NCBI GenBank assembly: GCA_043718945.1
Contig: JAYSUV010000042.1
Span: 1-55,627, forward strand
Direction: 5' to 3'
Length of the DNA: 55,627 bases
Source: Planctomycetota bacterium
GTDB lineage: Bacteria; Planctomycetota; Planctomycetia; Planctomycetales; Planctomycetaceae
The notes under the pieces were generated by a model that was not told where the DNA came from, searched no databases, and was given only the letters and a program-made list of their open reading frames with translations. Each line of letters begins with the position of its first letter. The stretch's first letter is position 1. The position numbers were made by a program, and so were the translations under genes. Below are positions 17,481-55,346 of the stretch, in pieces.

Positions 17481-17864
17481 CGGACGAACTCCGGCAGGTC
17501 AGACTTAGGATGACATTCGGACTATGGGGCATTAGAGGCCGAGTTTCAACCGGAATGGGCCTGACGGAGTTGCCACGCAGTGTGTTCGCCCTCCAGTCAT
17601 GTGGCATCACTGCGTCTCCCATCGAGGGATAGTTCTTCCGCAGAGTTCCCTCGCCAGACTCGAATTGAATAAACGGCAGTACATGTTTGTTTCATCCGAA
17701 TCCACTTCCCCAGTTCATCAAGTAATTCCGGTGTGAAGCGCATCACATCTCCCGGCCCCCTGCTGAACGGACTTCACAACCGCATTGACAGTTGGCCAAA
17801 CTACTGGTCACGATTGTCTTCTGGTGGTCACCACGACTCGAGTCCTTCTCTGGACACTCATCCG

Positions 17865-40900: not shown

Positions 40901-43900
40901 TTTTGTCCCCCGGAGATTGTGCCGATGACGACACCGCCGAAGGTCACGGTCGTACCGTTGAAGCCAATCTGGCCGGAGCCGGTCCCTTGATTCCGAATCG
41001 AGAGGCTGTCCTCCGTCCCGCCGCCCACTGAGTAGCCCACCACCAGCGACCCGCCGTTGAAGTTCGGCGAATCGATGTCACTGACGGTCACATCGATGTC
41101 GATCAGCTGTGGCCCGGCGTTGACCAACGTCTCGGTGAAAGTCACGGACGGCACAAGATCGGTGAAGACCGGCGGGTCATTCACCGGGTTGATGGTGATC
41201 GTGATGACATCGTTGTTCGTGGCCGTGGAACCATCGGATTCTGTCGCCGTGGCCAACAGGCTGAGTGTGACCTCGCCGGACTGATTCGGCGGTGGAATCA
41301 AAAACAGCATTCCCAGATTCCAGCTGGTAATCGTGACAACAGCACCACTCGCGGGAGAGGTAAACGTGTTGGTCCCGTCGGTCAGCGTGAAGCCGGGAGG
41401 AACGGTAGTGATCTGGAGTGTGAGGGTTTCTGATCCATCCAGATCGGCCAGGACTGCGCTGATGTGCCCCGCCAGACTGACGCCGACCGTATCTTCATAG
41501 TCGACGACATCGACCGTGGACAGGATCGGCGTGTCAGCCACGGGAGTCACGATTACCGCGACAGTCTCTAATTCCAGTCCATTGGCGACCGAGACGTTGT
41601 AGTTACCACTGTAGTTCGTCGGCGAGATGACCTTGAGGGTGCCAACACTGGCCGCTGGGACCGACCACAGGCCGCCGCCCAGATTGATACCGACCGAGAG
41701 AGTCGTCCCCGTCGGGGCTCCGCTCAGGTTGATCGTGAACGGACTCGTCGCCAGCGTGTTGACGATCCCCAGGCTGATTCCGCCGACCTGATCCTCGGGA
41801 CCGGTGACGGAACTGGGGGCGGTGAACTGGTTGAGAACATGGATCGTCGATGTCACCGCTGTTCCGGTAGCTCCACCCGCATCGGTCGCTGTCATCGAAA
41901 TCACGCGGTCGCCGTGGGTCGCCTCGACTGAGGTGTTCTGGTACTCGATCGACCGCAAGACGTCCCGGAAATCGGTCAGTGCCGCCGATAACGGTGCCCC
42001 CCCCGGGGTCACGATCACAGTCGCCGTCGTTCCGCTCAGCGTGACATCCACATCGAATTGCTCGCCATTGACTGTTACTTGCTGCGTGCTGCTCGACACA
42101 AGGGAGATCGTCGTACCGCCGATGATCAGCTTCTCCCGATTGCCATCAATGAGTCCGGAGACGGTGAGATTCAGGCTCGCCAGCGTTGTGTTATCGGGAT
42201 CGATGATCGTCGAAGAGTTCGCCAATGGGCTGGCATCAATGCTGACCGGACCGGTCGATTCACTGCATGTGGTCACATAATTGCCGTCATTCGCCCCGCC
42301 CGTGATGTTGTTTGGATCAAGGTTCAAGACGGGAACATCGTTGACCCCGTTGATCGTGATCGTCAGATTCGCTGTGTCGGTCAAAGGACCAACGGTTAAG
42401 TCTGTCACGGTGTAAACAAACGTTTCTGTCACAGTCTGACCTGTTGTCAGTGCGTTCACCGTCGGGTCGCTGCCGTTCACTGTGTAGCTGTAGCTCCCAT
42501 TCGCATTGACGGTAAGTGTGCCATAGGTGCCAGTGACTGTCGTCGCACCAGCGACCGCCGTCGCGTTGACGTTCACCACATTGAGAACATCATTCTCTGG
42601 ATCGGAGTCCACTCCCGCGCCAGTGTTATCCGTCAGAACATTGCCAGAGACCGGCACCACAGCGTTCTCGGAAATCGACACCAAGTTGTCTGTCGCGTTC
42701 GGTGCATCATTGACTGCAATGATCGTGACATTCGCCACAGCTGCGTTGCTGACAGTACCTTCGGAGTCAGTCGAAGTAAACGAGAAGGAGCGTGCGCTTC
42801 CCGACGGGGCCTCATCGGTATTGAGATAGGTAATGGAGCGCACCAGAGTCGTCAGGTCTGCTGCCGACATCGGGATCGCAGCTCCGGCGTTGTTCTGAAT
42901 CGAGAAAGTGCCGGTGGCGGCCACATAGCTGATCGCAAACGTCGTTCCGCCCAATGTGGCAGAGAGCGTTGCGTCAGTATTCAGAGCGAAAGACTGCCCT
43001 CCGATCGTCAACGATTCCAGCGCCCCATCGGCGAGACCGGTGGCGACGATGTTCATCAGGGTGATGTCGTTCTCACCGAGGTCGCTCACTGCCGCAATGG
43101 CGGAGGTGAGATTCACGGTTGCATCCCCTTCGGTGAAGGTGACTGCATTGTCTCGCGTGACATCCCCCACCGATGCCGCGGAGTTGAGATCGACGATTGG
43201 AGCGTCATTGACCGGCACGACAGTCAGGCTTGTCGTCACGGAGACCGAAGTGAGGGCTGCACTGTCCGTTGAAACGAACGAAACCGTGCGAACACCCGCA
43301 GTCGGGTTCTCAGAGGTATGTGAATAGGCCACCGATCGCATGATCGTTTGCATCTCGGAGACTGAGATTACGCCGCCTCCGGTGCGAGTGATCTCAAATG
43401 TCGATGTCGCCGCCGTGTATGCGACGGTGACGTTGTATGCCACACCGCTTACGGCCACCGTCGTCAGCGTTGAGTCCGAATTGAGCGTGAATACCGAACT
43501 CCCTACATGAATGCGTTCCGCAGCTGCTTCCAGCACTCCTGTCACTGAGACGGTCAGACGATTCAGGTCCGCCTCTCCGAAATCATTCGCAGTTGAGTTG
43601 GTCGCCATCAGGGCGACTGCAGCTGCGTTCTCGGTGTACGTCGCCACATAGTTCCCATCGTTCGCTCCACCACTGGCATTGGAGGGATCGAGGTTGAGAG
43701 TTGGCGCATCATCCACTGCGACAACACCAATCGTCGCGACTGCGATATCTGATGGGTTCACTCCATCTGTTACCCGCACCGTGACATTGCGTGGTGTGGT
43801 TGAAGGAGTGTCGGAGTTGTTGGAAAAACTCACCGCTTGAATCGCTGTTTGGTATTCCGCCAGCGTCGCTGTCCCTGAAAGAGTGACTGTGACCTGTCCC

Positions 43901-45432
43901 GCCACGCTCGTGTTGATACTCGATGAGATAGAACCGGGCAGCGTGCCGACCGTCATAAGATCACTGGCCTGCGCGTTCGTGAGTATGATCGTGGCTCCGG
44001 TCAGAGTGCTACTGGAAGCATGTTCCAGAAGAATGTCCATGTCACTGATCGAGACTGCCGATCCTCCCTCTATGAATGATGTCAGGTAGTTGCTCCCCGT
44101 CGCTCCACTGCTGTTGTTGCTATCCAAATCAATCTGTGGAATGCCCACGACCACGGGACTGGAAAACACAAAGTCTCCGTCGCCATCATGGTCGTAGAAT
44201 CGCTGACCCGCAGACGCATTGAAGCAGAAGTAGGTGGCCTCCCACGAGCTGCGATTCCGCCAGCTATACTGAACCCAGGCCTCTTGTTGAGTGGCATTTT
44301 GGCCGAGCGTCCCATCCGCTCGAACCTGATTGCCATCATTACTGATCACCAGATTCGTGGGATTATTGCGGGTATATGCATAGAGGCCAGTCAGGTCAGC
44401 AGCTGCCCCTTCAATGGATGCCCCGACACCGAGGTTGCCGTCCAAGTCGCGAATCTTGAAGTTCGGGTCACCGATTGCGACCACGGTCTGGCCTGTCCCT
44501 GACTGAAAGACCTCCCAGCGAATTGTCGCTGTTCCCGCATTATCAATTGTTACCCGTGGATCGTCGGAACCGCCGCCGGTCGTAAACCCGACGATAGAGG
44601 CTCCTGTTCTGGAGATGACGGTGGCACGCAAATCGATCGGGACTCCGCCGACGGTTCCCGCGTTGGTCCAGAGTCCAACGGTTCCAACGCCACCTGTTCC
44701 GGTGACCGTCGGCAGACCTGACGCGGAAATCAGCAAGGGAGCCAGTACACCCTGCCACGCAGGTGCCTCTAAGGTGGCCGTCTCCTGTGTCCCGTGCTGG
44801 AACTCGAGATCCCAGTCACCGCCCAGGCTGACGTTCCCTGTCATGTCATCGCTGGCAGACACATCGGCACCCGTCAGGACGCTGATCTCCTCCAGCATTT
44901 GCACACCTGTAGCTGTCTGGGCAACATCGCAGCCGTAGAACAGCAAGTCCGCGTCCGCACTCAGGTGGGTGCCCCAGCGAGCGAACTCTCCGGCATGTTG
45001 CGGCAAGTTCTCGGGGGCCAGCCAGGTGGAACCCAGTTCGATCTGGCCCGGTTGTCCGTGCGTGAAAATGTGGACGGCGTCGTACGGAGTGGTCGACCCC
45101 GCGAGCAGTTGCGTGATCTGCTCGACCCCATCCTGGTCGGCGTTCAGATATCGCACCTCGAAGTCTCGCCCTGTCTGGCCTGAGAGCAGTTCTTGGAGAA
45201 GCTGCTCCGCATTGGCGACGCGCGGGTCCATGATGATCAGTTCGTGCGTTCCCTGTGTGGGAGCTTGATCGATGGCGGCTTGCGTCTGCTCCGGCACCGG
45301 CTGGGCCTCGACTTGTGCTTCTTCAGCCAGTGCCGCTGCATCGGGCACGGCGTCAAACAGGAGGCGGTCTTCGAGCTGTTCCATCAGCAGGGTGCGGGGA
45401 CGGAGCCAGTTGGTGGAGGTGCGACGGAACAT
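28996..45432 (-). CDS. Giant (5,478 aa) surface/adhesin-like repeat protein: N-terminal DUF4347-like domain, cadherin-like/VCBS region, then dozens of bacterial Ig-like (BapA/SiiE-type) modules
   Basis: Single uninterrupted 16,437-nt ORF. ATG 45432 is preceded by GGAG (45441-45444) with an 8-nt spacer. N-terminus MFRRTSTNWLRPRTLLMEQLEDRLLFDAVPD has no hydrophobic signal peptide. Residues ~62-211 match the DUF4347 pattern (HELIIMDP...HIFTHGQPGQIELG...LLFYGCDVA...GDWDLEF). VNDAP/VDDAP-delimited cadherin-like units and a VCBS-like unit (GTYGTLTVNANGSYSYTV...TETFVYTVTD) follow. From about 39400 downward there are repeated ~100-aa modules (ISDDTGSSSTDxxTSDNTLxxSGTAEPNS...DGVSxGT...GxWxxD; PNLTDPTDSGSSNTDDLTNxTTPTFxAPAGTGEPGSTVTLY...). 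Confidence 0.9.
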   Translation of the reverse strand: MFRRTSTNWLRPRTLLMEQLEDRLLFDAVPDAAALAEEAQVEAQPVPEQTQAAIDQAPTQGTHELIIMDPRVANAEQLLQELLSGQTGRDFEVRYLNADQDGVEQITQLLAGSTTPYDAVHIFTHGQPGQIELGSTWLAPENLPQHAGEFARWGTHLSADADLLFYGCDVAQTATGVQMLEEISVLTGADVSASDDMTGNVSLGGDWDLEFQHGTQETATLEAPAWQGVLAPLLISASGLPTVTGTGGVGTVGLWTNAGTVGGVPIDLRATVISRTGASIVGFTTGGGSDDPRVTIDNAGTATIRWEVFQSGTGQTVVAIGDPNFKIRDLDGNLGVGASIEGAAADLTGLYAYTRNNPTNLVISNDGNQVRADGTLGQNATQQEAWVQYSWRNRSSWEATYFCFNASAGQRFYDHDGDGDFVFSSPVVVGIPQIDLDSNNSSGATGSNYLTSFIEGGSAVSISDMDILLEHASSSTLTGATIILTNAQASDLMTVGTLPGSISSSINTSVAGQVTVTLSGTATLAEYQTAIQAVSFSNNSDTPSTTPRNVTVRVTDGVNPSDIAVATIGVVAVDDAPTLNLDPSNASGGANDGNYVATYTENAAAVALMATNSTANDFGEADLNRLTVSVTGVLEAAAERIHVGSSVFTLNSDSTLTTVAVSGVAYNVTVAYTAATSTFEITRTGGGVISVSEMQTIMRSVAYSHTSENPTAGVRTVSFVSTDSAALTSVSVTTSLTVVPVNDAPIVDLNSAASVGDVTRDNAVTFTEGDATVNLTSAIAAVSDLGENDITLMNIVATGLADGALESLTIGGQSFALNTDATLSATLGGTTFAISYVAATGTFSIQNNAGAAIPMSAADLTTLVRSITYLNTDEAPSGSARSFSFTSTDSEGTVSNAAVANVTIIAVNDAPNATDNLVSISENAVVPVSGNVLTDNTGAGVDSDPENDVLNVVNVNATAVAGATTVTGTYGTLTVNANGSYSYTVNGSDPTVNALTTGQTVTETFVYTVTDLTVGPLTDTANLTITINGVNDVPVLNLDPNNITGGANDGNYVTTCSESTGPVSIDASPLANSSTIIDPDNTTLASLNLTVSGLIDGNREKLIIGGTTISLVSSSTQQVTVNGEQFDVDVTLSGTTATVIVTPGGAPLSAALTDFRDVLRSIEYQNTSVEATHGDRVISMTATDAGGATGTAVTSTIHVLNQFTAPSSVTGPEDQVGGISLGIVNTLATSPFTINLSGAPTGTTLSVGINLGGGLWSVPAASVGTLKVISPTNYSGNYNVSVANGLELETVAVIVTPVADTPILSTVDVVDYEDTVGVSLAGHISAVLADLDGSETLTLQITTVPPGFTLTDGTNTFTSPASGAVVTITSWNLGMLFLIPPPNQSGEVTLSLLATATESDGSTATNNDVITITINPVNDPPVFTDLVPSVTFTETLVNAGPQLIDIDVTVSDIDSPNFNGGSLVVGYSVGGGTEDSLSIRNQGTGSGQIGFNGTTVTFGGVVIGTISGGQNGTAGTPLVIDFNASATPAAVEALIQNLTYVNSSDTPAAARTIQVTIDDGGTENATASALTVINVTPVNDVPVLDMSTAIAGTGYVNTFTENGPAVSVTASTVLMSDPDDPNIESALVVLTNAQTGDLLTFASSLPGGITAIIDTAVPGIVTITLSGTATQADYQNALAALRFENTSDTPSTTPRVIDITVNDGSANSNTAISTISVVSTNDTPAIADLNGVTFTESAVNSGPQLVDISVTVTDTDSMNLNGGSLTISYDAMDGGSTDDQLSFMDFGTGPGLIGFSGTTITYGGVVIGTVRTGADGSNGSDLIIDFTANATPGAVDALLQSLTYANADDTPAATRTITAVVTDGDGGTSNTASSQITITAENDPPVITAVSTPTYTQDRPEVVVASTVTVSDVDDTFIESATVTISSIDRTNDLLTLTPAAQAAATLAGITVTAYNPATGELTLSGSASPADYQAVLAGIQFSSSSGTPTDRVISYVVNDGSDSSNVANVTVDYIADTIAPTKPVITAISDDTGPSSTDGFTSDNTLTISGTAEPNSTLELFLDGVSLGTVVVDGAGNWTFDHTGTTLADGPYVLTATSTDAADNTSVLSDPFAIVVDTNTGSGTLIQGPIVSAISIDSGSSGTDGVTSDNTLVISGTAQPNSSVEVFIDGVSIGTVMVNGAGLWSIDHTSATLPDETYDLTAVQTDPAGNMATSPVYEAVVDTDNPEPPVVTAISDDTGSSSTDAFTSDNTLIFSGNAEPNSEVEVFLDGVSIGTVMADGAGLWSLDYTATVLADGPYVLTATSTDDAGNVSDLSATYAFTVDTNTGTGPIAALPLISSMSDDTGVSATDEYTSDNTLEFSGTGQPNSVLELFLDGTSIGTTNIDAAGNWTFDYTSVVLPDGDYILTGVQTDLAGNVTSPSPDFAFTVDTDAVAGPHTTVPTVTAISIDSGSSSTDEYTNDNTLIFSGTADPNASIEVYLDGVSIGTTTTDSIGNWRFDNTTTVLLDGDYEVSVEQTDQAGNLSASTDLPFTIDTNAVDGPHAMVTPAVVSLATNITLPTLTGEYDSDDAVALSVTVNGVIYVLGTDPQLTTVGDTWTLNLSVGTVAGLPEGTYSVTTTATDLAGNSLTDVTSAELLVDLTAPAAPTIDGPIEGDDIINAAEDDDAAISGTGEPNTTLTLTVDDGNPLTPPVTIDVLVDAMGNWTVPVAGLNLSGLKDGPLTVTAFTTDASGNVSPTATAAPVHDTVNEPVVITGPVEGDDIVNAAEAGSVLVTGTAEPNSTVTVSISDGANPPVEVVVTTDPSGNWTIVGQEVDISGLNEGPLTITATAVDEAGNPSTSDTHDIVLDITAPSINPLDPDALTIDTPIEGDNTANAAEDNDVLLTGTAEPNSTVTLTVRDPSGHGVTVTVMTDPDGLWTITGDELDLSAFDQGTLDVSATATDLAGNTSAAVATTFEHDSLVGVTITGPVMGDDRIRDAEDNAVLVIGTTDPNASVEVTLTDATGKFVTVTVIADGAGLWSIAGQEVDLSTFDQGTITITAIATDTAGNVSTTATHPIDHDSIDPAPPTVNTLVTNDQTPTLTGTWDEASASELEVTVNGVTYVLGTNPQLTTDGSENWTLNLNSQPLLPGAVYDVSVVSNDEAGNTSNDSTASELTVDVAPPVRPTVNVLITNDVTPTITGTWAAGDATILQVVVNGFTYVRDLNNPAASDPQLVANSDGTWSLNLDGEPALNPGRYNVSASNWDPANNRSNDKTTNEVTIDVTPPLAAVNPPNLTTPTDTGISNTDDLTGNNTPTFSGKGGEPGSTATIYAQPVDENGDPTGPPVTIGTATTGPTGLYSVLTNPGNPLADGPYLITVTFTDRAGNESDPSPSLAIVVDTTAPVELLITDAATSTIEEDHVVNLAESPDVTIAGSGAEPSSTVSVVITDSLSNILGPIAATLNADGTWTIPDQDFSGLADGPITVVATETDNAGNVGLGVSTTLTLDRTPPLAPPVVDMTDETDSAGASVADDLTYDQTPTFTAPPGTGVAGDVVSIYVDGELVATGFVALDGSYEVTPTNPIAEGPHDVTASFTDPAGNEGPQSTILAIVIDITEPSLLAIDAPVMEDDLINAAEAPATVVSGSGVEPTSTVEVTFTDSLGASVGPVMATVNPDGTWTISPTDLTSLADGPITVTVIEEDAAGNLSEPVTSNITLDTTPPEAALIAPNLTDPTDTGVSNTDDNTANIAPTFDAPAGTGEPGSTVTLYVTPLDVNGDPIGSPLVVGTAIVNEDGSYTISVGPISPLGDGPYDVTVTFTDIAGNEGPQSPALAIIIDTTEPAAALIAPNLTDATDSGTSPTDDLTNVTTPTFDAPVETGEPGSTVTLYVTPLDADGEPTGPAVAVGTAIVNEDGSYTVRVDAMNPLVDGHYDVTVTFTDLAGNEGPQSPALAIVVDTTAPTTDPGAVDPLTIAPPIEGDDIVNAVEVDDVLVTGTAEPNSVVEVTLDDGNPLTDPVVATVTTDAAGNWTLLGSEVDLSTLDDGPLNVTATATDAAGNTSEPVTAEITKDTVAPAAALIAPNLTDPTDSGSSNTDDLTNVTTPTFDAPAGTGEPGSTVTLYVTPLDENGDPAGPPMAVGTAAVNEDGSYTVSVDPMNPLADGPYDITVTFTDPAGNEGAQSLALEIVVDTMAPAAAPVAPNLTDPTDTGSSPIDDLTNDTTPTFDAPAGTGEPGSTVTLYLDGERVGTATVNEDGSYEVSVDPDSSLADGPHDVTVTFTDPAGNESEPSPPLAIIVDTTDPNNLLITNADTSTIEGDHVVNLVESPDVTIAGSGAEPTSTVSVVITDSLGTELGPIAATVNEDGTWTIPDQDFSSLVDGPITVIATETDAAGNVGPGVSTTLILDTTSPVAPLLVDMTDGTDSGASPTDDLTNDQTPTFTAPAGTGVPGDLVTIYVDGELVATGTVAEDGSYEVTPTTPIAEGPHNVTASFTDPAGNEGPQSLVLSIEIDITPPSELAINPNPMVDGLVNADEAPNTVVSGSGVEPTSTVTVTFTDSEGHTVGPVMATVNDDGTWTSSPTDLTSLVDGSITITAVESDDAGNVGEPVVSELTLDTTPPTAAATPPNLVDSSDSGSSNTDDVTSDTTPTFNAPAGTGEPGSTVTLYIDGEPVGMALVNEDGSYTVDVPAVSPLTDGPHAVTVTFTDPAGNEGPPSPVLSIVVDTTAPIAAVIAPDLTNESDSGSYSTDDLTNDTTPTFSAPPGTGEPGSTVTLYVDGEPVGTALVNADGSYTVSLPPGSPLTDGPHEVAVSFTDPAGNEGPLSPALDFIVDSTAPDGLAIDGPVTSDNVVNLTETPLVALSGTGAEPGSIVSVTLTDSDGNNLGPIAANVNPDGTWTVPATDISSLADGPITVTATETDEAGNVGEPVTSAFDKDTTPPAALTPPNLVDESDSGSASEDDLTNDTTPTFNGPTGSGEPGSTVTLYVDGEPVGTAIVNEDGSYEVTVDPGSPLVDGPHDLTVTFTDTAGNEGPQSPTLVITLDTTAPDGLVISGPVTPDDVVNAAEQMGVVISGIGVEPTSTVTVTLTDSAGNEVGPVTAFVNEDGTWSIPPTDISSLIDGPITVTATETDKAGNAGDPVSSSFDKDTTPPQALTPPDLVDGSDTGDTPTDNLTNDNTPTFSGPAGAGEPGSTVTLYVDGEPVGTAIVNEDGSYSVDVPVSSPLSDGEHQVTVTFTDVAGNEGPHSPPLAITIDTTEPISPTTTLTLPDKLTGTGEPGTKITMLDKNGDPGVDTNGNPIVTMVGVDGKWTLTGMFPQLGFQDTVTVISTDGAGNSSSTSVKIAFFGFDSFNNLSQTPSRFMSEAWSDSEILLSRLLLDLGSSPILSGSARPGTQLIARLYSVDGSILAEQSVIADAAGNWMLQLPGMLPSDAPRIVIEHISTSQVPLGSSGFRLSDQTYTQLQFGTTYGYQSTADGVLGATAGEALRVDHAENLNPLNWL
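44800..45249 (-). other. DUF4347-like N-terminal domain of the giant protein (residues ~62-211)
   Basis: Block HELIIMDPRV...DAVHIFTHGQPGQIELG...ADLLFYGCDVAQTATG...ADVSASDDMTGNVSLGGDWDLEF. Coordinates were derived by counting residues from ATG 45432. Domain name is recalled from memory of similar giant proteins. Confidence 0.5.
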
Positions 45433-46191: not shown

Positions 46192-47487
46192 ATGGTTCTG
46201 TTTCAGTGCGACTCGCAGAGGTCGCGTTCACTCGGTGTCTGGGGTTGGGTGATGAGCCTGGCCGGGGCAGCTGTAGTCTGCGGTACGACTACTGAATGTC
46301 ATGCGGACGATCTCCAGGTTGTCACCGTGGCCAGTCAACAGAGCGTGGCATCCACCACAGCTAGCCGGGTCCGCGAGGGTGCCGATCAAGCCGCCGACCA
46401 AGTCATAGACATCGCCGATGCCCCCTGGTGGGATGCCGACGTTCACGAGTCAATGCAGAGCCAGGCCAGCTCGCTGCCGCTCACGCTGCAACAGACCATC
46501 TGGTATGCATTGAATTACTCCGCACAGATCCAAGTGTTTAGTGACCTGCCGCTCATTCGCGAGCAGGCGATCACCGAGGCCGATGCCTATTTCGATTGGA
46601 ACGCCTTCTTTGATACCCGCTGGGACGACCTCAATACTCCCGTCGGGAGTTCGCTCACTGTCGGTGGAGCGGGCACACGTTACCTCAACGATCAGTTCAG
46701 CTTCTCAGCGGGGGTACGACGCAAGAATGAGATCGGTGGCAAGTTCGAGATCGCACAGCAATTCGGCACCCAGCGCACGAACTCGACCTTCTTTGTCCCG
46801 AACAACCAGGGGACTTCTCGCCTCTCATTGAGTTACACGCAACCGCTGTTGCGAGGTCGCGGGGAAGAATACAACCGCAGTTTGTTCGTGTTGGCCAACA
46901 TCGATACACAGGCCGCTCAAAGTGAGTTCCACCGCCAGTTGCAGGGACATCTCGTTGAAGTGACACGGGCCTTCTGGGGAGTGTACCTGGAGCGGGCTTC
47001 ACTGATTCAGAAGTATCGTCTGTACGAAGCGAGTGCCAAAATCCTCAAGGACCTCGAAGCGCGGGCGGACATCGACGCGAACCAGAGCGTGATCCTGCGG
47101 GCGCGGGCGGCTGTGGCGGGTCGCCGTGCCGAACTGGTTCGGGCCCGGACAGCTGTCAAGAACGCCGAGACCCGGCTACGCGGTTTAGTCAATGCCCCAG
47201 AGCTGGGAGATGGCCAGACAACTGAACTGATTCCCGGAGACACTCCACTGCGGGCCATCTACCAAGCGGATGCGGCCTCCAATATGTCGATGGCGTTACA
47301 AAGTCGCCCGGAGATCAACCAAGCGATGAAAGACATGCAGTCCGCCAGCGTCCGGCTGAACATGTCCAAGCACGAAATGCTGCCGACGCTGAACCTAATC
47401 GCGGAGACCTCGGTGGCCGGATTGCGAGGCAGCTATGACGTGGGCAATGCCTACAACGATCAGTTCTCGGTTGGTGCGCCGAGCTAA
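46192..47487 (+). CDS. TolC-family outer membrane efflux protein, N-terminal 431-codon part ending at an in-frame TAA (split gene or pseudogene)
   Basis: ATG 46192 is preceded by GGGGGAAG. It has a signal-like N-terminus. Typical OEP features are present: LTLQQTIWYALNYSAQI, coiled-coil repeats, QPLLRGRG. The ORF stops at TAA 47485-47487 in the middle of the second repeat. The same frame continues as 47497-48009. Confidence 0.75.
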   Translation: MVLFQCDSQRSRSLGVWGWVMSLAGAAVVCGTTTECHADDLQVVTVASQQSVASTTASRVREGADQAADQVIDIADAPWWDADVHESMQSQASSLPLTLQQTIWYALNYSAQIQVFSDLPLIREQAITEADAYFDWNAFFDTRWDDLNTPVGSSLTVGGAGTRYLNDQFSFSAGVRRKNEIGGKFEIAQQFGTQRTNSTFFVPNNQGTSRLSLSYTQPLLRGRGEEYNRSLFVLANIDTQAAQSEFHRQLQGHLVEVTRAFWGVYLERASLIQKYRLYEASAKILKDLEARADIDANQSVILRARAAVAGRRAELVRARTAVKNAETRLRGLVNAPELGDGQTTELIPGDTPLRAIYQADAASNMSMALQSRPEINQAMKDMQSASVRLNMSKHEMLPTLNLIAETSVAGLRGSYDVGNAYNDQFSVGAPS

Positions 47488-47496
47488 TCGGTCGGG

Positions 47497-48009
47497 GTGC
47501 AGTTTGAAGTTCCCATCGGTCGTAGACTGTCTCAAGCACGCCTGACCCGGCGGGAGATTGAACTTCGTCAAGTGCGCAATCAGTTCCGCTCTGTGACCGA
47601 AACGATCAAAGTCGAAGTCGAAGTTTCCACTCGCGAAGTTGAGACAGCCTTCAAAGAGATGCTCGCCAAGCAACAGCAAATTGCCGCCACGACCGAAGAC
47701 GCCAAGTCGATCGCGCATCGCTGGGAGATGTTGCCCGGTGCCGACGGCTCAGCAGCTGTGGTTCTCGATCAACTGCTCCGCGCTCAGGAGCGGCAGACAG
47801 CTGCGGAGAATGACTTCTTATTAGCGGAGCTGACTTACAACCTGGCTCTGACGAACATGAAAAAGAGTACCGGGGAGTTGCTTCAGTCGGAGATGATTAC
47901 CGAGGGGCGGTACTCCGAGAACGGAGTGCCCCGGACCGTGCTGGATAAGCCAATCATGTCAACAGAGGTGCAGCCGGAGCCAGCTCCAGGCTCCGCGCTT
48001 CCGCAGTAG
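47497..48009 (+). CDS. TolC-family outer membrane efflux protein, C-terminal part (same frame as 46192-47487)
   Basis: SVGVQFEVPIGRRLSQARLTRREIELRQV... is the canonical TolC beta-strand/helix continuation (xVGxxxxxPxxxR). It starts 9 nt after the TAA, in the same frame. It has no independent signal peptide, so it is unlikely to be a stand-alone gene. Confidence 0.7.
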   Translation: MQFEVPIGRRLSQARLTRREIELRQVRNQFRSVTETIKVEVEVSTREVETAFKEMLAKQQQIAATTEDAKSIAHRWEMLPGADGSAAVVLDQLLRAQERQTAAENDFLLAELTYNLALTNMKKSTGELLQSEMITEGRYSENGVPRTVLDKPIMSTEVQPEPAPGSALPQ

Positions 48010-48246
48010 GCCCCATCGCTAGGAGCCGACATCCTGCCATCAGTATGCGGTCGAGGGGGCCGCTGACGCCCTGTCGAGAAGAATCGGAATCGGGAGTGGA
48101 TCACCGGCCCGCGAGCCACCCACCGGTCTCGTTCTCTCGACAGGGCGATGTCATTGAGTCGGGGGGGTGGAGTCTGGAGCAGGAAGCTTCTGGCCATCCA
48201 CCATCCGCTCCCTCTCTTTCATTCATCACTCACCACTCGCCTCCCT

Positions 48247-50124
48247 ATGCGTCTCCTCACACGCACTCCCGATCTCGTCGAACGAGTGCGAATGCTCGGG
48301 AAGCCTCTGCCTACCAACCCACAGGGATTCCTGTCCCAAGCGATGATCGCACTGCGGGAGCGGGCGAGGACCATGACGACGACAACCGAGAGCGACCTGC
48401 TCGCCCGCTCCTTTTCTCTCGGCACCGAAGCCATCCGCCGTGTCTTTGGGTTTGTGTTGCACGATGTCCAGATTCGCGGAGCCGCAGCCGTGGCGCGCGG
48501 CGATGTGGTGCAGATGCAGACTGGCGAAGGCAAGACGATGGTCGCCGCATTGGCCGCGATCAATCGTGCCTTGTCAGGTCGAGGAGTGCATGTGATCACG
48601 ACCAACAGCTATTTAGCTGAGAGAGATTGCGAAGAGCTGCGACCAGTGTTTGACATGCTCGGGATCTCGCTGGGAGTGTTAAGGCAGGAGTCGACGCTCG
48701 CTGAGACTCGGCGAGCCTACGCCGCCGAAGTGACTTATGGTCCGGGGTATCAGTTCGGGTTTGACTACCTGAAGGACCAGTTGGCTTTGAGGACCGTTGT
48801 GGAGGTTCCTCTTGGTTCAAAACTCAGAGCAGGGCTGAATGGCCAACGAGTCGGTGAGACACCACTGCGGCAGCGACCTCGCGACTTCGCGATCATCGAC
48901 GAGATCGACAGCGTGCTGTTGGATGAAGCGTCGACTCCACTGATCCTCAGTGGATCGGCCAGCGGGATCGATGATCCAGCACCGTATGAAATTGCCCGCG
49001 ACTGCGTGGCTCGCTTCGCGGCGGAGACCGACTTCACCATCGAGTCGCCATCGCAGCGCATCTTGCTTTCGGTCGACGCGGTCACTCGCTCGCAACAGGC
49101 TCTGACAGCTCGGCCAAAAGTGCGACTGGCCCGCCCGTGGGCCACCTATCTGCGAAATGCAATCCAGGCACAGTACAAGCTCCATCGCGACGAACACTAC
49201 GCCGTGATCGAGGATGAGGTCCGCATCGTCGATCAGAACACCGGTCGTATTTTTGCCGACCGTTCTTGGCGTGACGGACTGCATCAAGCGGTCCAGGCCA
49301 AAGAGCAGGCTTCGATCACGCCGAGTGAGACATCACTCGCTCGCATCACCCGGCAGAGATACTTCCAGCAGTACAACCAGCTGGCCGGGCTGACCGGGAC
49401 GGCTCTGGGTGCCGAGCCGGAGTTCGAGAGTGTCTACGCCTTGCGAGTCGTTCCGATCCCGACAGCGCGCCCCTGCTTGCGGCGTCTGGAACGGCAACGG
49501 GCGTTTGGTACTCTCGACGCTAAACGAAGTGCCATCGCGAGCGACACCGCGAATCGCTTTCACCGGGGGCAGCCCGTGCTGATTGGAACGCGGACGATCG
49601 AAGAGAGCCGACGCCTTTCGGATCAGTTCACGGTACTCCAACTTCCACACATCGTCCTCAACGGACTGCAAGATGCGGACGAAGCATCCATCATCTCACA
49701 AGCAGGTCAAACCGGGGCGATCACGATCGCGACGAACATGGCCGGGCGCGGGACCGACATCAAGTTGAGTCCGGCGGCGAGAGACGCTGGCGGGCTGCAT
49801 GTCGTCGTCTCGGAGCCGCACATCTCGCAACGGATCGATCGCCAGTTGATCGGGCGTTGTTCTCGACAAGGCGACCCTGGATCGGCCCAGGTCTTCGTCT
49901 GTGCCGAGGATCAACTGTTGACGCTGCATGCTCCCAAGCTCGCGAAACGGCTGCGCCGATTGGCCGGGGCGGACGGCGAGTGCAGCGTCGATGTCGCCGG
50001 TGATGTTCTCAGAACTCAACAGCGCATTGAACTGGAACACTCTCAGCAGCGTGCGAAGCTGTTGAAGCAAGATGAGTGGTTGGATGGAGTTCGCAAAGTC
50101 CTCTCAGGATGGGAAACCGAATGA
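48247..50124 (+). CDS. SecA-like ATPase paralog: NBD1, preprotein cross-linking domain and NBD2 present; most of the helical scaffold, wing and C-terminal tail absent
   Basis: MQTGEGKTM (Walker A), DEIDSVLLDEASTPLILSG, RSWRDGLHQAVQAKE...ITRQRYFQQYNQLAGLTGTA, TNMAGRGTDIKL and GGLHVVVSEPHISQRIDRQLIGRCSRQGDPG match the SecA motor motifs in order. The protein ends 80 residues after GDPG. Start taken at ATG 48247; the ORF is open from 48148. Confidence 0.85.
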   Translation: MRLLTRTPDLVERVRMLGKPLPTNPQGFLSQAMIALRERARTMTTTTESDLLARSFSLGTEAIRRVFGFVLHDVQIRGAAAVARGDVVQMQTGEGKTMVAALAAINRALSGRGVHVITTNSYLAERDCEELRPVFDMLGISLGVLRQESTLAETRRAYAAEVTYGPGYQFGFDYLKDQLALRTVVEVPLGSKLRAGLNGQRVGETPLRQRPRDFAIIDEIDSVLLDEASTPLILSGSASGIDDPAPYEIARDCVARFAAETDFTIESPSQRILLSVDAVTRSQQALTARPKVRLARPWATYLRNAIQAQYKLHRDEHYAVIEDEVRIVDQNTGRIFADRSWRDGLHQAVQAKEQASITPSETSLARITRQRYFQQYNQLAGLTGTALGAEPEFESVYALRVVPIPTARPCLRRLERQRAFGTLDAKRSAIASDTANRFHRGQPVLIGTRTIEESRRLSDQFTVLQLPHIVLNGLQDADEASIISQAGQTGAITIATNMAGRGTDIKLSPAARDAGGLHVVVSEPHISQRIDRQLIGRCSRQGDPGSAQVFVCAEDQLLTLHAPKLAKRLRRLAGADGECSVDVAGDVLRTQQRIELEHSQQRAKLLKQDEWLDGVRKVLSGWETE

Positions 50125-51011
50125 ACACGTTCGCACGGACGATCATGCTGACGGTATGGACAGCCAGCGTGCTGCTAAGCGGGGCCAAGCTGCGGGCCGA
50201 GGTCACGACCAGCTTTACCGAGCCGGATGAGACAATCGAAGTCGCTTGCGCTGAACCGGGTGTTGTCGCGCAGGTACTCGTGAAGCAGGGGCAATTCGTC
50301 AAGGCGGGGACCATCCTGGCCGTCCTCGACAACGCGGTCCTCGAAGCGACACTCCGTGCGGCAGAGACGAAGGCGCGATCGACGGCCCGGATCGATCTGG
50401 CTCGGGTGGAGGTCGAACTCAAGCAGAGACAGAAGGCCAAACTCTCGCTCGTCCTCGCCGACGGGCACGCCTCGGCCAATGAGATCGAGAAAGCCGAAGC
50501 CGAACTGGCCGCCAGCCAGGCCCAGCTGCGCATCTCCGAAGAGGAAGCGATCCTGAGCAAGATCGATGTGGAACAGATCAAGGCTCAAATTGAACGCCGC
50601 ACCATTCGCAGCCCGGTCGACGGCGTGGCGACTCGTGTTCGTCGACGACCTGGCGAGTTCCTCTCCAGCAGCGAGCCAGTGATCGCGACGGTGGTCCGTC
50701 TCGATCAGCTGCGGGTGAAGTTCTACGTCTCAACGGAGCTGGCCGAACGACTGCAATCGAATGGGGAATGCGCTGTCTCGATACGTGGCCAGCGAATCGC
50801 CGGGCGGATCGACTTCCTCTCACCGGTGACCGATGCCGACAGCGGGACGGTGCGCATGGAAGTGCTGCTCGACAACCGGTCGCACAAGCTTCGTAGCGGG
50901 ATCTCCAGTCAGCTGGAGTTGGTGCCACCGACAACGACTCCGGTCCGGGGGAGTGAGCCGGTGGTGGTCAAGCCGCGTGAGTCGGGGTTGGTCGCCCCCG
51001 TACTGCGGTAA
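50121..51011 (+). CDS. HlyD/membrane-fusion-family periplasmic adaptor with signal peptide
   Basis: ATG 50121 overlaps the SecA-like stop (ATGA, 50121-50124). Signal peptide is MNTFARTIMLTVWTASVLLSGAKLRA. The lipoyl-like block GVVAQVLVKQGQFVKAGTILAVLDN, a long coiled coil, then IRSPVDGVATRV are typical MFP architecture. Confidence 0.8.
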   Translation: MNTFARTIMLTVWTASVLLSGAKLRAEVTTSFTEPDETIEVACAEPGVVAQVLVKQGQFVKAGTILAVLDNAVLEATLRAAETKARSTARIDLARVEVELKQRQKAKLSLVLADGHASANEIEKAEAELAASQAQLRISEEEAILSKIDVEQIKAQIERRTIRSPVDGVATRVRRRPGEFLSSSEPVIATVVRLDQLRVKFYVSTELAERLQSNGECAVSIRGQRIAGRIDFLSPVTDADSGTVRMEVLLDNRSHKLRSGISSQLELVPPTTTPVRGSEPVVVKPRESGLVAPVLR

Positions 51012-51068: not shown

Positions 51069-51138
51069 CTGGCACCTGTGAATACTAAAACAATCCGCCC
51101 ACCTTCTGGCGAAGGTGGCTACGTTCAGGAACATCAGC

Positions 51139-52989
51139 ATGGCCGTCATGAAGACTCAACGCATTGATGCCCCTTCGCCGTTACCGATCACAGTCGCCTC
51201 GAAGGCCGGGCCGGTGCATGCTCGGCTGTATCACATCGCCTCGCAGATTCTTGACCCCTTGGTGGCTCGGTCAGAACTGAGGAAGGTCGCCATCGCCGAG
51301 ACGGGAGCGATCGCTGCGGTCCATGTGTCTCGCACGTCTGATGGTCAGTGGACATTCGACCCGAGCCAGATCACGGGGGACTTGCCTCGCGATGAGGGGA
51401 TGCGCGAGCAGCTGAATGAACTCTGCACAGCTGCGACTGAGCGTAGCAAGCCACAAATCCAGCAGTCGAAGACTGCGGCTTCACTGTTCCTGATTGGGGC
51501 TCCGATTGTGCTCCCACGCACAGCGGGAGAGGTGCTGTTCATTGTCGTCCCGGCCCAGGCGGGTGCGGTGCAGGCGGCGACGATGATTGTCGACTTGGTA
51601 GCGGCGTACCAGCGCACGTGGGCACTCACGCACATCGCGGCGCAGATGGACCGACAGCTTGATTCGATTGCCACGCTGTGCGAGCTGACCTCGAAAGTCA
51701 CCGGGGCCGAGAGCCTCGATGCGGCCACCACGTTACTCGTGAGTGAAGTGCAGCGCCGGTTCGGATGTTTGCGAGTGGCAGTCGGGATCAAGCAGGGGAG
51801 ATCGCTACGGTTAGCGGCGGTGTCGGGGACATCGCAGGCCGATCCGACCTCGACACCAGTCCACCGACTGAGACAGGCCATGCAAGAGACGCTGTTCCGA
51901 GATGAACCCGCCGTGTGGCCGGTGAATTCCTCGGAGGCGATGCTGCTGGCACATCAGCAACTTGCACAGCACTGCTCGTTCCCGGCGGTCATCTCTGCGC
52001 CGCTGAAGCTCGCGGATGGGACCGTGGTTGGAGTATGGCTCTGGGCGGGAGCGAAGGAGAAGCTGCACGGTGAGGCGACACGGCGATTCATGGCAGCGGC
52101 CTCTCCGCATGTAGCGATTGCCTTACAGGCGTGTCGCCGTGCCGAGCCGGGGATCGCTTCGCGAGTGGCTTCGGCCTTGGGGCGGAGTCTGCGTAGCCGC
52201 GCGGGGATGCTGGTCGTGCTGGCGTTGATGCTCTTCGGAGGCGCGATGTTCGTTCCGGTTCCAAGTCATGTTCGCTGCGATTGCCGCGTGGCTCCGGTGG
52301 CCCGCCGTTATGCCGTCGCACCGTTCGATGGACAGATCGAGACAGTGCTCGCCAAGCGAGGAGACACCGTCACCGAGGGGCAGATCCTCGCTCGACTCGA
52401 CGGTCGACAGGTCCGCTGGGAGCTGGCTGGAGTCGAAGCTGAACGGCATCAAGCGGCTCGCAAGCACGAAGTCGAACTCGTGGGCCAGGATGTGCCCGAG
52501 GCGATCCTCGCGAGCTTGGAACTCGACCGACTCAACGTCAAAGACTCACAGCTGACCCACCGCGAATCCCAACTCGAAGTCGCCAGCCCGGTGACTGGGA
52601 TCGTGCTCGAGGGATTGCGAGATCGGGTCGAAGGGACACCGGTCAAGACGGGCGACGTACTGTTCGAGGTCGCTCCGCTCGACCGAGTGCGGGTCGAGAT
52701 CGAGGTGCCCGCCAGCGAAGTCTCTACCGTGGAAGTCGGCCAGTCGGTGACTCTCTGGCTCGAGGGCCTGGGGACCGACGCGATCTCGGGAACGATTCAA
52801 TCGCTTGCTCCCGAGTCCGAGGTCAGCGAAGGCGAAAACGTGTTCATCGCCGAGCTGGAGTTTGAGAATACCCAAGGCCGGATGCGCCCCGGCATGCGCG
52901 GGCGAACCCGGATTGACTCGCCGAGGAGGCCACTGGGACGGGTACTGTTCCAGCCATTGTGGGAGTGGTGGTTGTCTCGCTGGGGATGA
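51139..52989 (+). CDS. HlyD-family adaptor with a large cytoplasmic GAF-like N-terminal region and one TM helix
   Basis: The C-terminal half (VAPFDGQIETVLAKRGDTVTEGQILARLDG..., coiled coil, ASPVTGIVLEGL, GDVLFEVAP) is MFP-like. TM helix is AGMLVVLALMLFGGAMFVPV. The preceding ~350 residues are soluble and include a GAF-like stretch (LCELTSKVTGAESLDAATTLLVSEVQRRFGCLRVAVGI...LRLAAVSG...). Start is ATG 51139 or 51148; the track ORF begins at GTG 51115. Confidence 0.7.
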   Translation: MAVMKTQRIDAPSPLPITVASKAGPVHARLYHIASQILDPLVARSELRKVAIAETGAIAAVHVSRTSDGQWTFDPSQITGDLPRDEGMREQLNELCTAATERSKPQIQQSKTAASLFLIGAPIVLPRTAGEVLFIVVPAQAGAVQAATMIVDLVAAYQRTWALTHIAAQMDRQLDSIATLCELTSKVTGAESLDAATTLLVSEVQRRFGCLRVAVGIKQGRSLRLAAVSGTSQADPTSTPVHRLRQAMQETLFRDEPAVWPVNSSEAMLLAHQQLAQHCSFPAVISAPLKLADGTVVGVWLWAGAKEKLHGEATRRFMAAASPHVAIALQACRRAEPGIASRVASALGRSLRSRAGMLVVLALMLFGGAMFVPVPSHVRCDCRVAPVARRYAVAPFDGQIETVLAKRGDTVTEGQILARLDGRQVRWELAGVEAERHQAARKHEVELVGQDVPEAILASLELDRLNVKDSQLTHRESQLEVASPVTGIVLEGLRDRVEGTPVKTGDVLFEVAPLDRVRVEIEVPASEVSTVEVGQSVTLWLEGLGTDAISGTIQSLAPESEVSEGENVFIAELEFENTQGRMRPGMRGRTRIDSPRRPLGRVLFQPLWEWWLSRWG

Positions 52990-53168: not shown

Positions 53169-55346
53169 ATGCACACACCCGACCATGCCACGTTCGAGAT
53201 TGCCGGAGCCAAGCCGCGGCTGCGGGATGGGTTGGTGTTCACCTTGCGCGAGACCGGCGGGGAGCCGGGGGCGATCATTGAGGACGAGCTGCGCGGCCGG
53301 TTCTATCGCGTGGGGATGGCAGAGTATACGTTCCTCTCGCTCCTTGATGGCCGGACGACGATCGGCGAGGCACTGGGGGCGACTGCACTCCGGCTCAAGG
53401 ACCGAGCCCTGACCGAAGACGAGGCCGCATCATTATGCCGCTGGTTGATCGACAGCGGCTTGGCTCTCATCGGCCATGAGTCAGTGACCGCAATGGAACA
53501 AGAGCGTGCCAAGCGGTCCCAGTTGGCCCTCACACGTTGGATGAATCCGCTGATGCTGCGGATGCCGTTGTTTAGTCCCGAGCGAATGTTGCGGGCGATG
53601 TTGCCGCTGTTTGATTGGCTGATTAGCGGAACAGGAGCAATGCTGTGGTGTCTGCTGTGCGGATATGCCCTAGTCCGCTTTATTCCAGATGCGGGCGACC
53701 TGTGGCAGGGAGTGCGACCGCTACTGGATGCCGATAATGGCTGGAAGCTCGCGGCGACGTGGCTTCTGATGAAACTCGTGCATGAGAGTGCCCACGGGTT
53801 GACGTGCCAGAAGTTCGGGGGAGTCGTGCGCGAGTGCGGCGTCAACTGGCTGCTGTTTGTGCCGCTCCCCTATGTGGATGTCACCAGTTGCTGGCGGCTG
53901 GCGTCGACCTCGCAGCGGTTGCTGGTCTCCGCTGCGGGGATACTGGCCGAGATGGCACTGGCAGCTGTGGCGGCGATTGTCTGGACGCTGACTGACAATC
54001 CGATTGTGCGGCAGCATGCGACCAACGTCATCATCTCGGCCACCATAACGACGCTCCTATTCAATGCGAACCCTCTGATGAGGAGCGACGGGTACTATCT
54101 GTTAAGCGACCTGCTCGACTGTCCGAACCTATCGATGCAGGGGCAGACGTTCGTCCAGAACCTGTGGCGGATGGTGTTCTTGGGATTGAGGCCGCGACCG
54201 ATTGATGTCTCTCTGGGACGGCTCTTCGTCATTGCGGTCTATGGGGTACTTTCGTCGGTGTGGTCGGTACTGGTCGGATTGGGAATGATTATCGGGGCAG
54301 CGAATCTGTGGCCGGGCATCGGGTTATTGCTCGCTGTCGTACTCGTGACGTTGTGGTATCTCTGGCCAGCAGTGCGGGCGCTGAAGTTCTTTGTACTGGG
54401 CAGTGAAACGGAGCAGCCACGGCGCTTACGCTGCCTGGTGGTGACCGCGGCGTGCCTCGCCGCGTTGATTGTGTCTGCCAAGCGATTGCCCGCCCCGAGC
54501 GTCATCAGTGCTCCGGCAGTGGTGCAAACTCGTCCACTGTCGATCGTGCATAGTCTGGCCACCGGTCGTGTGGTCCGCGTCACCGTGGAGACGGGAGACC
54601 TGGTGTCGTCTGGCGATCTACTCTTGCAGCTGGAGAACCCCGATCTGGTTGTCGACCTGCAACAGCTACGATTCGATGTCACAACCTCCACGCAGCGCGA
54701 GATCCGCCAACTCAACCAGGGAGAAGTCGCCGCTGCGGAAGTCGAGCGTTCGAACCGCACAGCAATGACTCGGCGCGAGAAGGAGCTGGTGCGGATGATC
54801 GAGGGGCTGACGGTCAAAGCTCCGATGGCCGGGCGCGTCGTGACACGCGACCTAGGTCAACTGCTCGGGCGCGATCTACCGCAAGGGACCGAACTGCTGA
54901 CGATCGCATCAACAGCTCGACCCCAGCTGATCGCGTTAGTCCCGCAGTCGGAAGCCGAATCGCTTCGCGGTCGAGAAGGCCAAGCGGTTCGAGGTTGGTT
55001 GTGGGGGCATGAGAGGTGGCTCGGCGGTGAGATTGAACATGTCGAACCGCGTGCGACCCAAGTGGCCGCTCATCCCGCGCTGACCGCCGAAGCGGGTGGT
55101 CCACTCGCAGTCGTGGCCCGCGATCCTCGAGACGAGGCCGGAACGGAGCTGGCCTCCTCGCAGTGGTTGATGACCGAGCCGCAGCTGGAAGTGGTGATCA
55201 ATCTGGACGCGACGAGCGAGCGGTTGGCTCTCGGCGAGACGGGGATTGTGCGTCTGCCGATCCGCAGTGGATCGTTGTGGGGGTATGTCAGGCAGAAGAT
55301 CGAGAACTGGTGGTCAGTCCGCTGGACGACCACGCACGGGGTGTAA
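53169..55346 (+). CDS. Tripartite fusion: PqqD/RRE-like N-terminal domain, polytopic M50 (site-2 protease-type) zinc metalloprotease, and C-terminal HlyD-type adaptor
   Basis: HESAH (HExxH, 53781-53795) lies inside a TM segment. NPLMRSDG (54069-54092) matches the second M50 motif (NxxPxxxxDG). N-terminal IIEDELRGRFYRVGMAEYTFLSLLDGRTTIGEAL...EDEAASLCRWLIDSGLAL resembles PqqD-type peptide-binding winged helices. The C-terminus (GRVVRVTVETGDLVSSGDLLLQLENPDL, coiled coil, VKAPMAGRVV) is MFP-like. Confidence 0.75.
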   Translation: MHTPDHATFEIAGAKPRLRDGLVFTLRETGGEPGAIIEDELRGRFYRVGMAEYTFLSLLDGRTTIGEALGATALRLKDRALTEDEAASLCRWLIDSGLALIGHESVTAMEQERAKRSQLALTRWMNPLMLRMPLFSPERMLRAMLPLFDWLISGTGAMLWCLLCGYALVRFIPDAGDLWQGVRPLLDADNGWKLAATWLLMKLVHESAHGLTCQKFGGVVRECGVNWLLFVPLPYVDVTSCWRLASTSQRLLVSAAGILAEMALAAVAAIVWTLTDNPIVRQHATNVIISATITTLLFNANPLMRSDGYYLLSDLLDCPNLSMQGQTFVQNLWRMVFLGLRPRPIDVSLGRLFVIAVYGVLSSVWSVLVGLGMIIGAANLWPGIGLLLAVVLVTLWYLWPAVRALKFFVLGSETEQPRRLRCLVVTAACLAALIVSAKRLPAPSVISAPAVVQTRPLSIVHSLATGRVVRVTVETGDLVSSGDLLLQLENPDLVVDLQQLRFDVTTSTQREIRQLNQGEVAAAEVERSNRTAMTRREKELVRMIEGLTVKAPMAGRVVTRDLGQLLGRDLPQGTELLTIASTARPQLIALVPQSEAESLRGREGQAVRGWLWGHERWLGGEIEHVEPRATQVAAHPALTAEAGGPLAVVARDPRDEAGTELASSQWLMTEPQLEVVINLDATSERLALGETGIVRLPIRSGSLWGYVRQKIENWWSVRWTTTHGV

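Follow-up and report, generated by a model that had tools for sequence, protein, structure and literature searches.

An RRE–M50–HlyD fusion protein as a candidate leader-processing adaptor for the export of LEPR-XLL giant proteins

In daptide proteases, a recognition element (RRE) for RiPPs (peptides made by the ribosome and modified after translation) is fused N-terminally to an intramembrane site-2 protease (S2P), and one such protease, MpaP, removes the leader (Ren et al., 10.1101/2023.03.08.531785). Here we describe a relative encoded on a contig of a Planctomycetota bacterium (JAYSUV010000042.1, positions 1 to 55,627; this whole 55.6-kb stretch is called the window below), in which an RRE-like domain and an M50 protease core continue into a periplasmic adaptor of the HlyD type. 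We propose, with a probability of roughly 0.55, that this RRE–M50–HlyD fusion is the substrate-recognising, leader-processing adaptor subunit of an envelope-spanning, type-I-like export machine for giant proteins that begin with an LEPR-XLL motif. Binding, cleavage and transport are all functions that we infer for the fusion system. This reading is supported because the closest characterised relative, MpaP, is itself an RRE-fused intramembrane leader peptidase.

The fusion shares with MpaP an N-terminal RRE joined to an M50 core that carries HExxH and NxxPxxxxDG, and presumably also the logic of reading a short leader and then removing it at the membrane. Among family models, it matches NF041824 of NCBIfam, which describes the daptide intramembrane metalloprotease, most strongly (E 2.6e-41, residues 34–396), and the alignment spans profile positions 17–361 of 379. 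Unlike MpaP, however, the fusion reaches only 142 bits where the equivalog cut-off is 300, and it possesses an extra transmembrane (TM) helix and a periplasmic HlyD module of ~300 amino acids (aa). Neither daptide genes (MpaA/B/C/D/M) nor small precursors lie near it, and its candidate substrate is a protein of 5478 aa.

A second comparison is with type I secretion, both by C39 peptidase-containing ABC exporters such as CvaB and ComA, with their HlyD-type adaptor and TolC, and by the adhesin system LapBCE. The locus described here resembles type I systems in having an α-hairpin adaptor and a TolC-like outer-membrane factor (OMF), with genes linked to giant, repeat-containing, adhesin-like cargo. 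As in peptidase-containing ABC exporters, leader recognition and cleavage would be coupled to export in one complex. Unlike type I systems, the locus described here has no ABC transporter, an M50 protease instead of a C39 cysteine protease, and three different adaptors. Its motor, when present, is a truncated SecA, and its cargo signal would be an N-terminal LEPR-XLL motif instead of a C-terminal RTX signal or a GG leader.

Taken singly, none of the components (RRE–M50 fusions, HlyD adaptors, S2P motifs) is new. Full-text literature searches, thin on subscription journals, returned no description of an RRE–M50–HlyD fusion, of a three-adaptor set, or of links to a truncated SecA or to LEPR-XLL giants. 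LEPR-XLL itself had passing mentions in the searched literature, for example as a domain of a giant protein, with no function, export route or processing enzyme. Databases name members of the family variously 'HlyD family efflux transporter periplasmic adaptor subunit', 'putative peptide zinc metalloprotease' and 'PqqD family peptide modification chaperone'.

An earlier note on this DNA had read the gene as a single polypeptide that combines a PqqD/RRE-like domain, an M50 protease and a HlyD adaptor. The open reading frame (ORF) and both protease motifs lie exactly where that note had placed them. Its parts, with boundaries drawn from an AlphaFold2 (AF2) model, hydropathy and family matches, are as follows.

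53169–55346, + strand: RRE–M50–HlyD fusion, one uninterrupted ORF of 725 aa
53214–53471, + strand: predicted cytoplasmic RRE (PqqD-like) domain, residues ~16–101, from the AF2 fold and Foldseek
53544–54398, + strand: M50/S2P membrane core, residues ~126–410, six TM helices, from PF02163 and NF041824/NF058609
53781–53795, + strand: HExxH motif HESAH, residues 205–209, zinc-binding/catalytic, in TM2 (AF2 helix 188–215)
54063–54092, + strand: NxxPxxxxDG motif NANPLMRSDG, residues 299–308, which carries the third zinc ligand of the S2P family
54423–54485, + strand: seventh TM helix, residues 419–439 (hydropathy 1.92, AF2 helix), which anchors the adaptor
54501–55268, + strand: periplasmic membrane-fusion (HlyD/MacA-type) module, residues ~445–700, from Pfam and Foldseek

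The three-part architecture is not a chance fusion, because it recurs in more than 475 full-length homologues (~725 aa, covering ~100% of the fusion protein) and in at least 589 loci of species-representative genomes (one genome per species). Most of these loci are in Planctomycetota; others are in Verrucomicrobiota, Proteobacteria, Brocadiia, Arenicella, Ca. Venteria and Desulfobulbus. We aligned 40 homologues with 33–87% identity to the fusion protein. HlyD_3 and HlyD_D23 match all 40, and Peptidase_M50 (PF02163) matches 39 at E ≤ 0.01, the best at E 1.6e-9. Residues H205, E206, H209, N299, N301, P302, L303, D307 and G308 are invariant throughout the alignment, a pattern that argues for selection on catalysis.

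The M50 assignment of the earlier note is borne out by the NF041824 match and by the relatives. In the fusion protein itself, PF02163 reaches 24.3 bits over residues 201–384, against a gathering score of 27.2, and the YydH/LiaK family model matches as well. A profile of the M50 core found no match among PDB sequences. The full-length Foldseek search returned adaptor structures among the matches listed, from which no S2P match could be read. Like RseP, SpoIVFB and MjS2P, the fusion has a polytopic core with HExxH and NxxPxxxxDG in separate TM helices and a predicted active site at the cytoplasmic leaflet. It differs from them in lacking PDZ and CBS domains, in carrying an RRE and a HlyD module, and in its context, which is secretion and not signalling.

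Membership in the M50 family would fit a regulatory S2P akin to RseP and SpoIVFB, which would cleave anti-sigma factors, happen to be fused to an efflux adaptor and have nothing to do with the giant protein. We regard this as highly improbable. The protein has an RRE and a HlyD module instead of PDZ or CBS domains, and the gene is syntenic with secretion components. The regulatory role was rejected for want of sigma or anti-sigma genes, none of which recurs in the neighbourhood.

The AF2 model of the whole protein (mean pLDDT 81.8) begins with three strands (residues 22–29, 32–39 and 44–49) and three helices (50–57, 65–79 and 83–95). Seven long hydrophobic helices follow (~154–181, 188–215, 247–274, 278–299, 349–380, 384–410 and 419–439), in agreement with hydropathy. 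The earlier note had seen HExxH and NPLMRSDG in hydrophobic segments, and both map to predicted membrane helices, with the NPLMRSDG stretch (residues 301–308, 54069–54092) forming the turn that follows helix 278–299. Basic loops at residues 339–348 (RPRP..GR) and 411–419 (EQPRRLR, directly before the seventh helix) lie on the same side as the RRE, and acidic or neutral loops at ~181–188 and 275–280 lie on the side opposite. Because seven TM helices part the RRE from the adaptor and the basic loops fall on the RRE side, the topology predicted by combining hydropathy and AF2 helices with the positive-inside rule is N-in/C-out. The RRE and both catalytic motifs would thus face the cytoplasmic leaflet, with the protease motifs in the membrane and the HlyD module in the periplasm, an arrangement that accords with the earlier note.

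Modelled alone, the N-terminal domain adopts a winged-helix β3α3 fold of ~85 residues with pLDDT above 90 over residues 11–100. Its best PDB matches in Foldseek are the stand-alone, leader-bound lasso-peptide RREs TbiB1 (5v1v, 5v1u) and TfuB1 (6jx3), with TM-scores on the target of 0.66–0.71, probabilities of 0.99–1.0 and E values of 0.012–0.08; the RREs of CteB (5why) and LynD (4v1t) come next. Sequence profiles do not pick up PqqD in it. Pfam PqqD (PF05402) matched none of 19 N-terminal domains at E ≤ 10, and a profile of the domain found no match among PDB sequences. Weak matches came from NF041824, in 4 of the 19 isolated domains (best E 0.0016), and from the PqqD family model TIGR04353, in one alphaproteobacterial orthologue (E 0.0098). 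The N-terminus of an E. coli plasmid fusion aligns to the RRE profile with an hhalign E value of 1.3e-4, and two plasmid orthologues are named 'PqqD family' by the NCBI annotation pipeline PGAP. A search with the domain profile gave 1585 cluster representatives, the best 150 of which are mostly ~725-aa fusions and the rest shorter. We accept the domain as an RRE by its predicted fold and its homology to RRE-peptidases. The earlier proposal of a PqqD/RRE-like domain therefore holds for the fold, whose best matches are RREs, and fails for the PqqD sequence profile.

The HlyD assignment has profile matches above cut-off: HlyD_3 scores 45.6 bits (gathering score 22.2) and HlyD_D23 37.9 bits (gathering score 30). 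In the AF2 model, the seventh helix anchors a lipoyl domain, an α-hairpin (491–516/520–545) and a β-barrel; the segment GDLLLQLENPDL corresponds to residues 482–493. Foldseek of the whole model retrieves the adaptors MacA, ZneB, MexA and EmrA at E 1e-12 to 1e-10, including MacA 3fpp at E 1.4e-12. The module that the earlier note had called HlyD is thus recovered both by Pfam and by structure.

If the fusion reads a leader, its ligand may lie in the giant protein encoded divergently from the operon.

28996–45432, − strand: giant protein of 5478 aa, the candidate cargo, divergently transcribed from the operon
45343–45390, − strand: LEPR-XLL-type motif, giant residues 15–30, LLMEQLEDRLLFDAVP, the proposed RRE ligand or leader

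The giant protein carries a DUF4347 domain (162 bits) directly after the N-terminal motif, a cadherin-like domain and ~33 immunoglobulin (Ig)-like domains (20 Big_13 and 13 Big_6); HemolysinCabind and RTX models found no match in it. It begins MFRRTSTNWLRPRTLLMEQLEDRLLFDAVPDAAALAEE..., with a basic stretch and no hydrophobic core, and so it has no classical Sec signal. The motif, here MEQLEDRLLFDAVP, aligns to positions 1–14 of the NF012209 model 'LEPR-XLL' ('LEPR-8K') over residues 15–28 of the protein. At 14.7 bits it stays below the cut-off of 17, as a variant with D for P and FDA for LSA. It occurs once at an ORF start in the window. Giants encoded beside other members of the family share, in at least 24 loci, an N-terminus that runs roughly φ-x-x-L-E-[DE]-R-φ-[LM]-φ-[DS]-A-x-P, as in EQLEDRVLFDGVPD, ELEDRILMSATP, ALEPRVLFDAAP (Verrucomicrobiia) and LNLESRMMFDGAAP (Arenicella). 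We propose the peptide RPRTLLMEQLEDRLLFDAVPDA as the candidate ligand of the RRE.

Two observations concern the far end of the giant gene. An exosortase gene (EpsH-family, 108 bits; 25071–26771, − strand) lies a few kb past its 3' end and is adjoined by a gene for a TPR protein (23518–25074, − strand). The C-terminus of the giant protein (...ENLNPLNWL) has no obvious PEP-CTERM signal.

The fusion gene is the last of a same-strand cluster in the order OMF, SecA-like ATPase, small adaptor, large adaptor, fusion. It is thus one of three co-operonic adaptors, a point absent from the earlier note.

46192–48009, + strand: TolC-like OMF (Pfam OEP, TIGR01844), with an in-frame TAA at 47485–47487
48148–50124, + strand: truncated SecA-like ATPase (SecA_DEAD 269 bits, SecA_PP_bind, P-loop_SecA)
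50121–51011, + strand: small adaptor, ~296 aa from the ATG at 50121 (TIGR01730 RND_mfp, 121.6 bits)
51115–52989, + strand: large adaptor (Pfam GAF_3 and HlyD_D23), directly upstream of the fusion gene

The small adaptor has an N-terminal signal or anchor, and its start overlaps the stop codon of the SecA-like gene as ATGA. The large adaptor combines a ~360-aa cytoplasmic GAF-like region, one TM helix (364–382, by hydropathy) and a periplasmic HlyD module. Pfam and NCBIfam scans detected no ABC gene in the operon.

The SecA-like protein comprises only the two nucleotide-binding domains, NBD1 and NBD2, and the preprotein cross-linking domain, PPXD, with Walker A MQTGEGKT, DEID and TNMAGRGTDI intact. 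Its alignment to B. subtilis SecA stops at about residue 610 of 841. By the established domain boundaries of SecA, the helical wing domain, the two-helix finger that inserts into SecY and the tail at the C-terminus are therefore missing. Like SecA2-type translocases, the protein is a SecA paralogue that seems dedicated to a specific substrate set and keeps its ATPase motifs. It differs from them in the missing wing, finger and tail, and in being co-operonic with adaptors and an OMF instead of SecY2/Asp.

Is this arrangement conserved? We clustered all ORFs of 82 fetched related loci. The fusion gene is present in all 82, the large adaptor in 74, the small adaptor in 62, the OMF in 35, the SecA-like gene in 34 and a DUF4347-type giant in 30; the remaining recurrent clusters appear, by strand, size and position, to be antisense shadow ORFs. 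Homologous fusions do co-occur with TolC-like genes, SecA-like genes and giants, as the earlier note's reading would require. In 33 of the loci, each flank extends for 9 kb or more. The large adaptor occurs in 31 of these fully flanked loci, one or more of the OMF, SecA-like and giant genes in 22, and all three together in 12. The full set reaches deep branches of the fusion-protein tree (Arenicella, Ca. Uabimicrobium, Brocadiia and Chthoniobacteraceae). No ABC, RND or MFS transporter recurs in the 82 loci.

Some genomes hold two paralogous adaptor triads: Stieleria marina K23_9 (loci L001 and L019), the metagenome-assembled genome (MAG) GLR80_GL56_UP_1_metabat_48 (L003 and L077) and a Mariniblastus MAG (L021 and L066). 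Often one triad is accompanied by giant, SecA-like and OMF genes of its own and the other stands alone. This suggests cargo-dedicated systems alongside copies that possibly serve cargo encoded elsewhere.

The conserved gene set of the 82 loci includes no other polytopic inner-membrane protein. Since something must form or organise a passage through the inner membrane, the M50 region could act mainly as a polytopic platform or conduit for adaptor assembly, with proteolysis incidental, for example in clearing jammed substrate. We give this idea little credence. It leaves the RRE pointless, lacking a specific peptide ligand, and HExxH and NxxPxxxxDG would hardly stay invariant across 40 homologues as divergent as 33% identity unless catalysis were under selection.

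The synteny also bears on what the fusion binds. The earlier note had offered two candidates, a separate leader-bearing peptide or the N-terminal LEDRLLFDA segment of the giant protein, and the evidence favours the second, because the motif and the giant are conserved beside the system across phyla and no small precursor is widely conserved. Small ORFs in the intergenic regions of the window are unremarkable as precursors. When 4026 small ORFs from 83 loci were clustered, none proved widely conserved near the system; those that recur are confined to three or four loci, as one ~85–120-aa family and others in apparently closely related genomes.

The ~85–120-aa family (...YANQ...LDFSSG...P..PIH.R...) is encoded beside adaptor genes in four loci (L035 8331–8582, L058 7613–7960, L063 8446–8814 and L077 6034–6360), and Verrucomicrobiota MAGs account for three of these.

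A fusion devoted to maturing and exporting a small leader-bearing peptide encoded elsewhere, with the giant gene a mere neighbour, would account for several features. Its best family matches, daptide MpaP and YydH/LiaK, are RiPP leader peptidases, the RRE fold is typical of RiPP pathways, and 11 of the 33 fully flanked loci have no nearby giant gene. Nevertheless, we consider a RiPP role improbable, and it was demoted because the small-ORF search gave nothing widely shared. No RiPP tailoring enzyme recurs in the 82 loci, nor do the aminotransferase, methyltransferase, MpaB/C or precursor genes of a daptide neighbourhood. The NF041824 score stays far under its equivalog cut-off, and giants that bear the N-terminal motif turn up repeatedly, all the way from Planctomycetota to plasmids of E. 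coli.

These plasmids extend the association to distant hosts. On Pseudosulfitobacter pDSM107133_a, PGAP names a 38.7-kb gene 'LEPR-XLL domain-containing protein', with the N-terminus ...MEALEPRFLLSADPAP, and it is followed by a large adaptor, the fusion orthologue, a SecA-like gene and a small adaptor. On E. coli and Citrobacter IncF plasmids, a gene for a 4459-aa Ig-like protein precedes TolC, two adaptors and a 710-aa M50–HlyD fusion. This protein starts MTTIKNRRLRPRAHRFALESRQLFDGAA and bears an N-terminal ALESRQLFDG motif (...RFALESRQLFDGAA). The operon spans 44829–64580 in E. coli NZ_CP081687.1 (L084/L085), is found also in Citrobacter CP078023.1 (L087), abuts IS1 or IS26, and occurs in 24 of 5426 complete E. 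coli genomes.

On pDSM107133_a, the SecA-like gene (NF006630, 585 bits; L083 12044–14068, that is NZ_CP085155.1 317513–319537) is mis-annotated as 'prepilin peptidase', and a SapC-family gene lies between it and the M50–HlyD orthologue. The SecA-like protein was considered as an obligatory part of the system and rejected as such; it is absent from the enterobacterial operons and, within 10 kb, from several planctomycete loci.

How might the parts work together? In our model, the RRE would bind the LEPR-XLL-type motif in the cytoplasm while the cargo is unfolded. In loci that have it, the SecA-like motor would then feed the chain, N-terminus first, into a conduit formed by the OMF and the three adaptors, which probably make up a mixed ring. 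At the inner membrane, the M50 site would remove the N-terminal leader near the ...DAxP boundary, much as MpaP acts on daptide leaders and C39-domain ABC exporters act on double-glycine leaders. We infer in this way what the earlier note had also supposed, that leader recognition, leader cleavage and hand-over to an outer-membrane channel could be coupled in one protein.

The same components could instead serve tether-and-release, and this is the most serious alternative, which we nonetheless consider unlikely. Here the RRE would keep the N-terminus of the cargo at the inner membrane, the remainder of the adhesin would be displayed by way of the adaptor and OMF, and later cleavage by the M50 site would release or remodel the surface protein. 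In function this would recall the N-terminal retention module, under LapG/LapD control, of adhesins secreted by type I systems. The cargo suits such a role, being a giant, adhesin-like Ig/cadherin-repeat protein whose motif is followed immediately by a folded DUF4347 domain; the cytoplasmic GAF-like sensor domain of the large adaptor could gate such an event, and the invariant catalytic residues fit either role. Yet SecA-type motors move chains N-terminus first in known cases, which suits a leader at the N-terminus more than an anchor there. Moreover, no cyclic di-GMP or LapD/LapG-like genes recur in the loci, and the closest characterised homologue is a leader peptidase.

Several points weigh against the leader-processing export reading itself. 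There is no evident pore through which a 5478-aa chain could cross the inner membrane. The substrates of classical S2Ps are helices embedded in the membrane, and the LEPR motif is amphipathic and not a TM segment. Variants of the motif track the M50–HlyD tree, but shared descent alone would give the same pattern. The RRE call rests on fold and MpaP homology, with Foldseek E values of ~1e-2 despite a probability of 1.0 and top matches that are all RREs. The enterobacterial operons have no SecA-like gene, and in 11 of the 33 fully flanked loci the adaptor genes stand alone, as neither a giant nor an OMF nor a SecA-like gene lies within 10 kb. Finally, the OMF gene of the window is interrupted by its premature TAA; the 80%-identical relative in locus L003 has TAC (Tyr) at this position and one ORF of 592 aa, so the stop is either a nonsense mutation, making the gene a possible pseudogene, or a sequencing error.

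Elsewhere in the window, a dynamin-family GTPase (6666–8465) and PSCyt2/PSD1 domains (17733–19484) both fit a planctomycete origin. Two long ORFs, of 950 aa (134–2986, + strand) and 626 aa (13865–15745, − strand), have no Pfam match at E ≤ 1e-5.

Combining these observations, we advance a broader and more tentative proposal, to which we would give somewhat worse than even odds: that six genes, for the fusion, the GAF–HlyD adaptor, the small HlyD adaptor, the OMF, the finger-less SecA paralogue and the LEPR-XLL cargo, constitute a distinct, hitherto unrecognised secretion pathway that spans the envelope and serves giant proteins, in which the LEPR-XLL tag is an export signal read by the RRE and cut by the intramembrane metalloprotease. 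If true, this would be the first case of RiPP-style leader recognition in protein secretion, and RRE domains would gain a role beyond RiPP biosynthesis. It would likewise define a tripartite exporter that dispenses with an ABC, RND or MFS pump, the first such adaptor/OMF system to use a SecA-derived motor in place of one, in some lineages at least. With the IncF operon of E. coli, the export hypothesis can be put to the test in a tractable organism. If confirmed, it would give an orphan sorting signal its machine: LEPR-XLL giants are common in Planctomycetota and occur also in Proteobacteria, and the fusion is a concrete candidate for the protein that reads their tag, cleaves it and takes part in their export.

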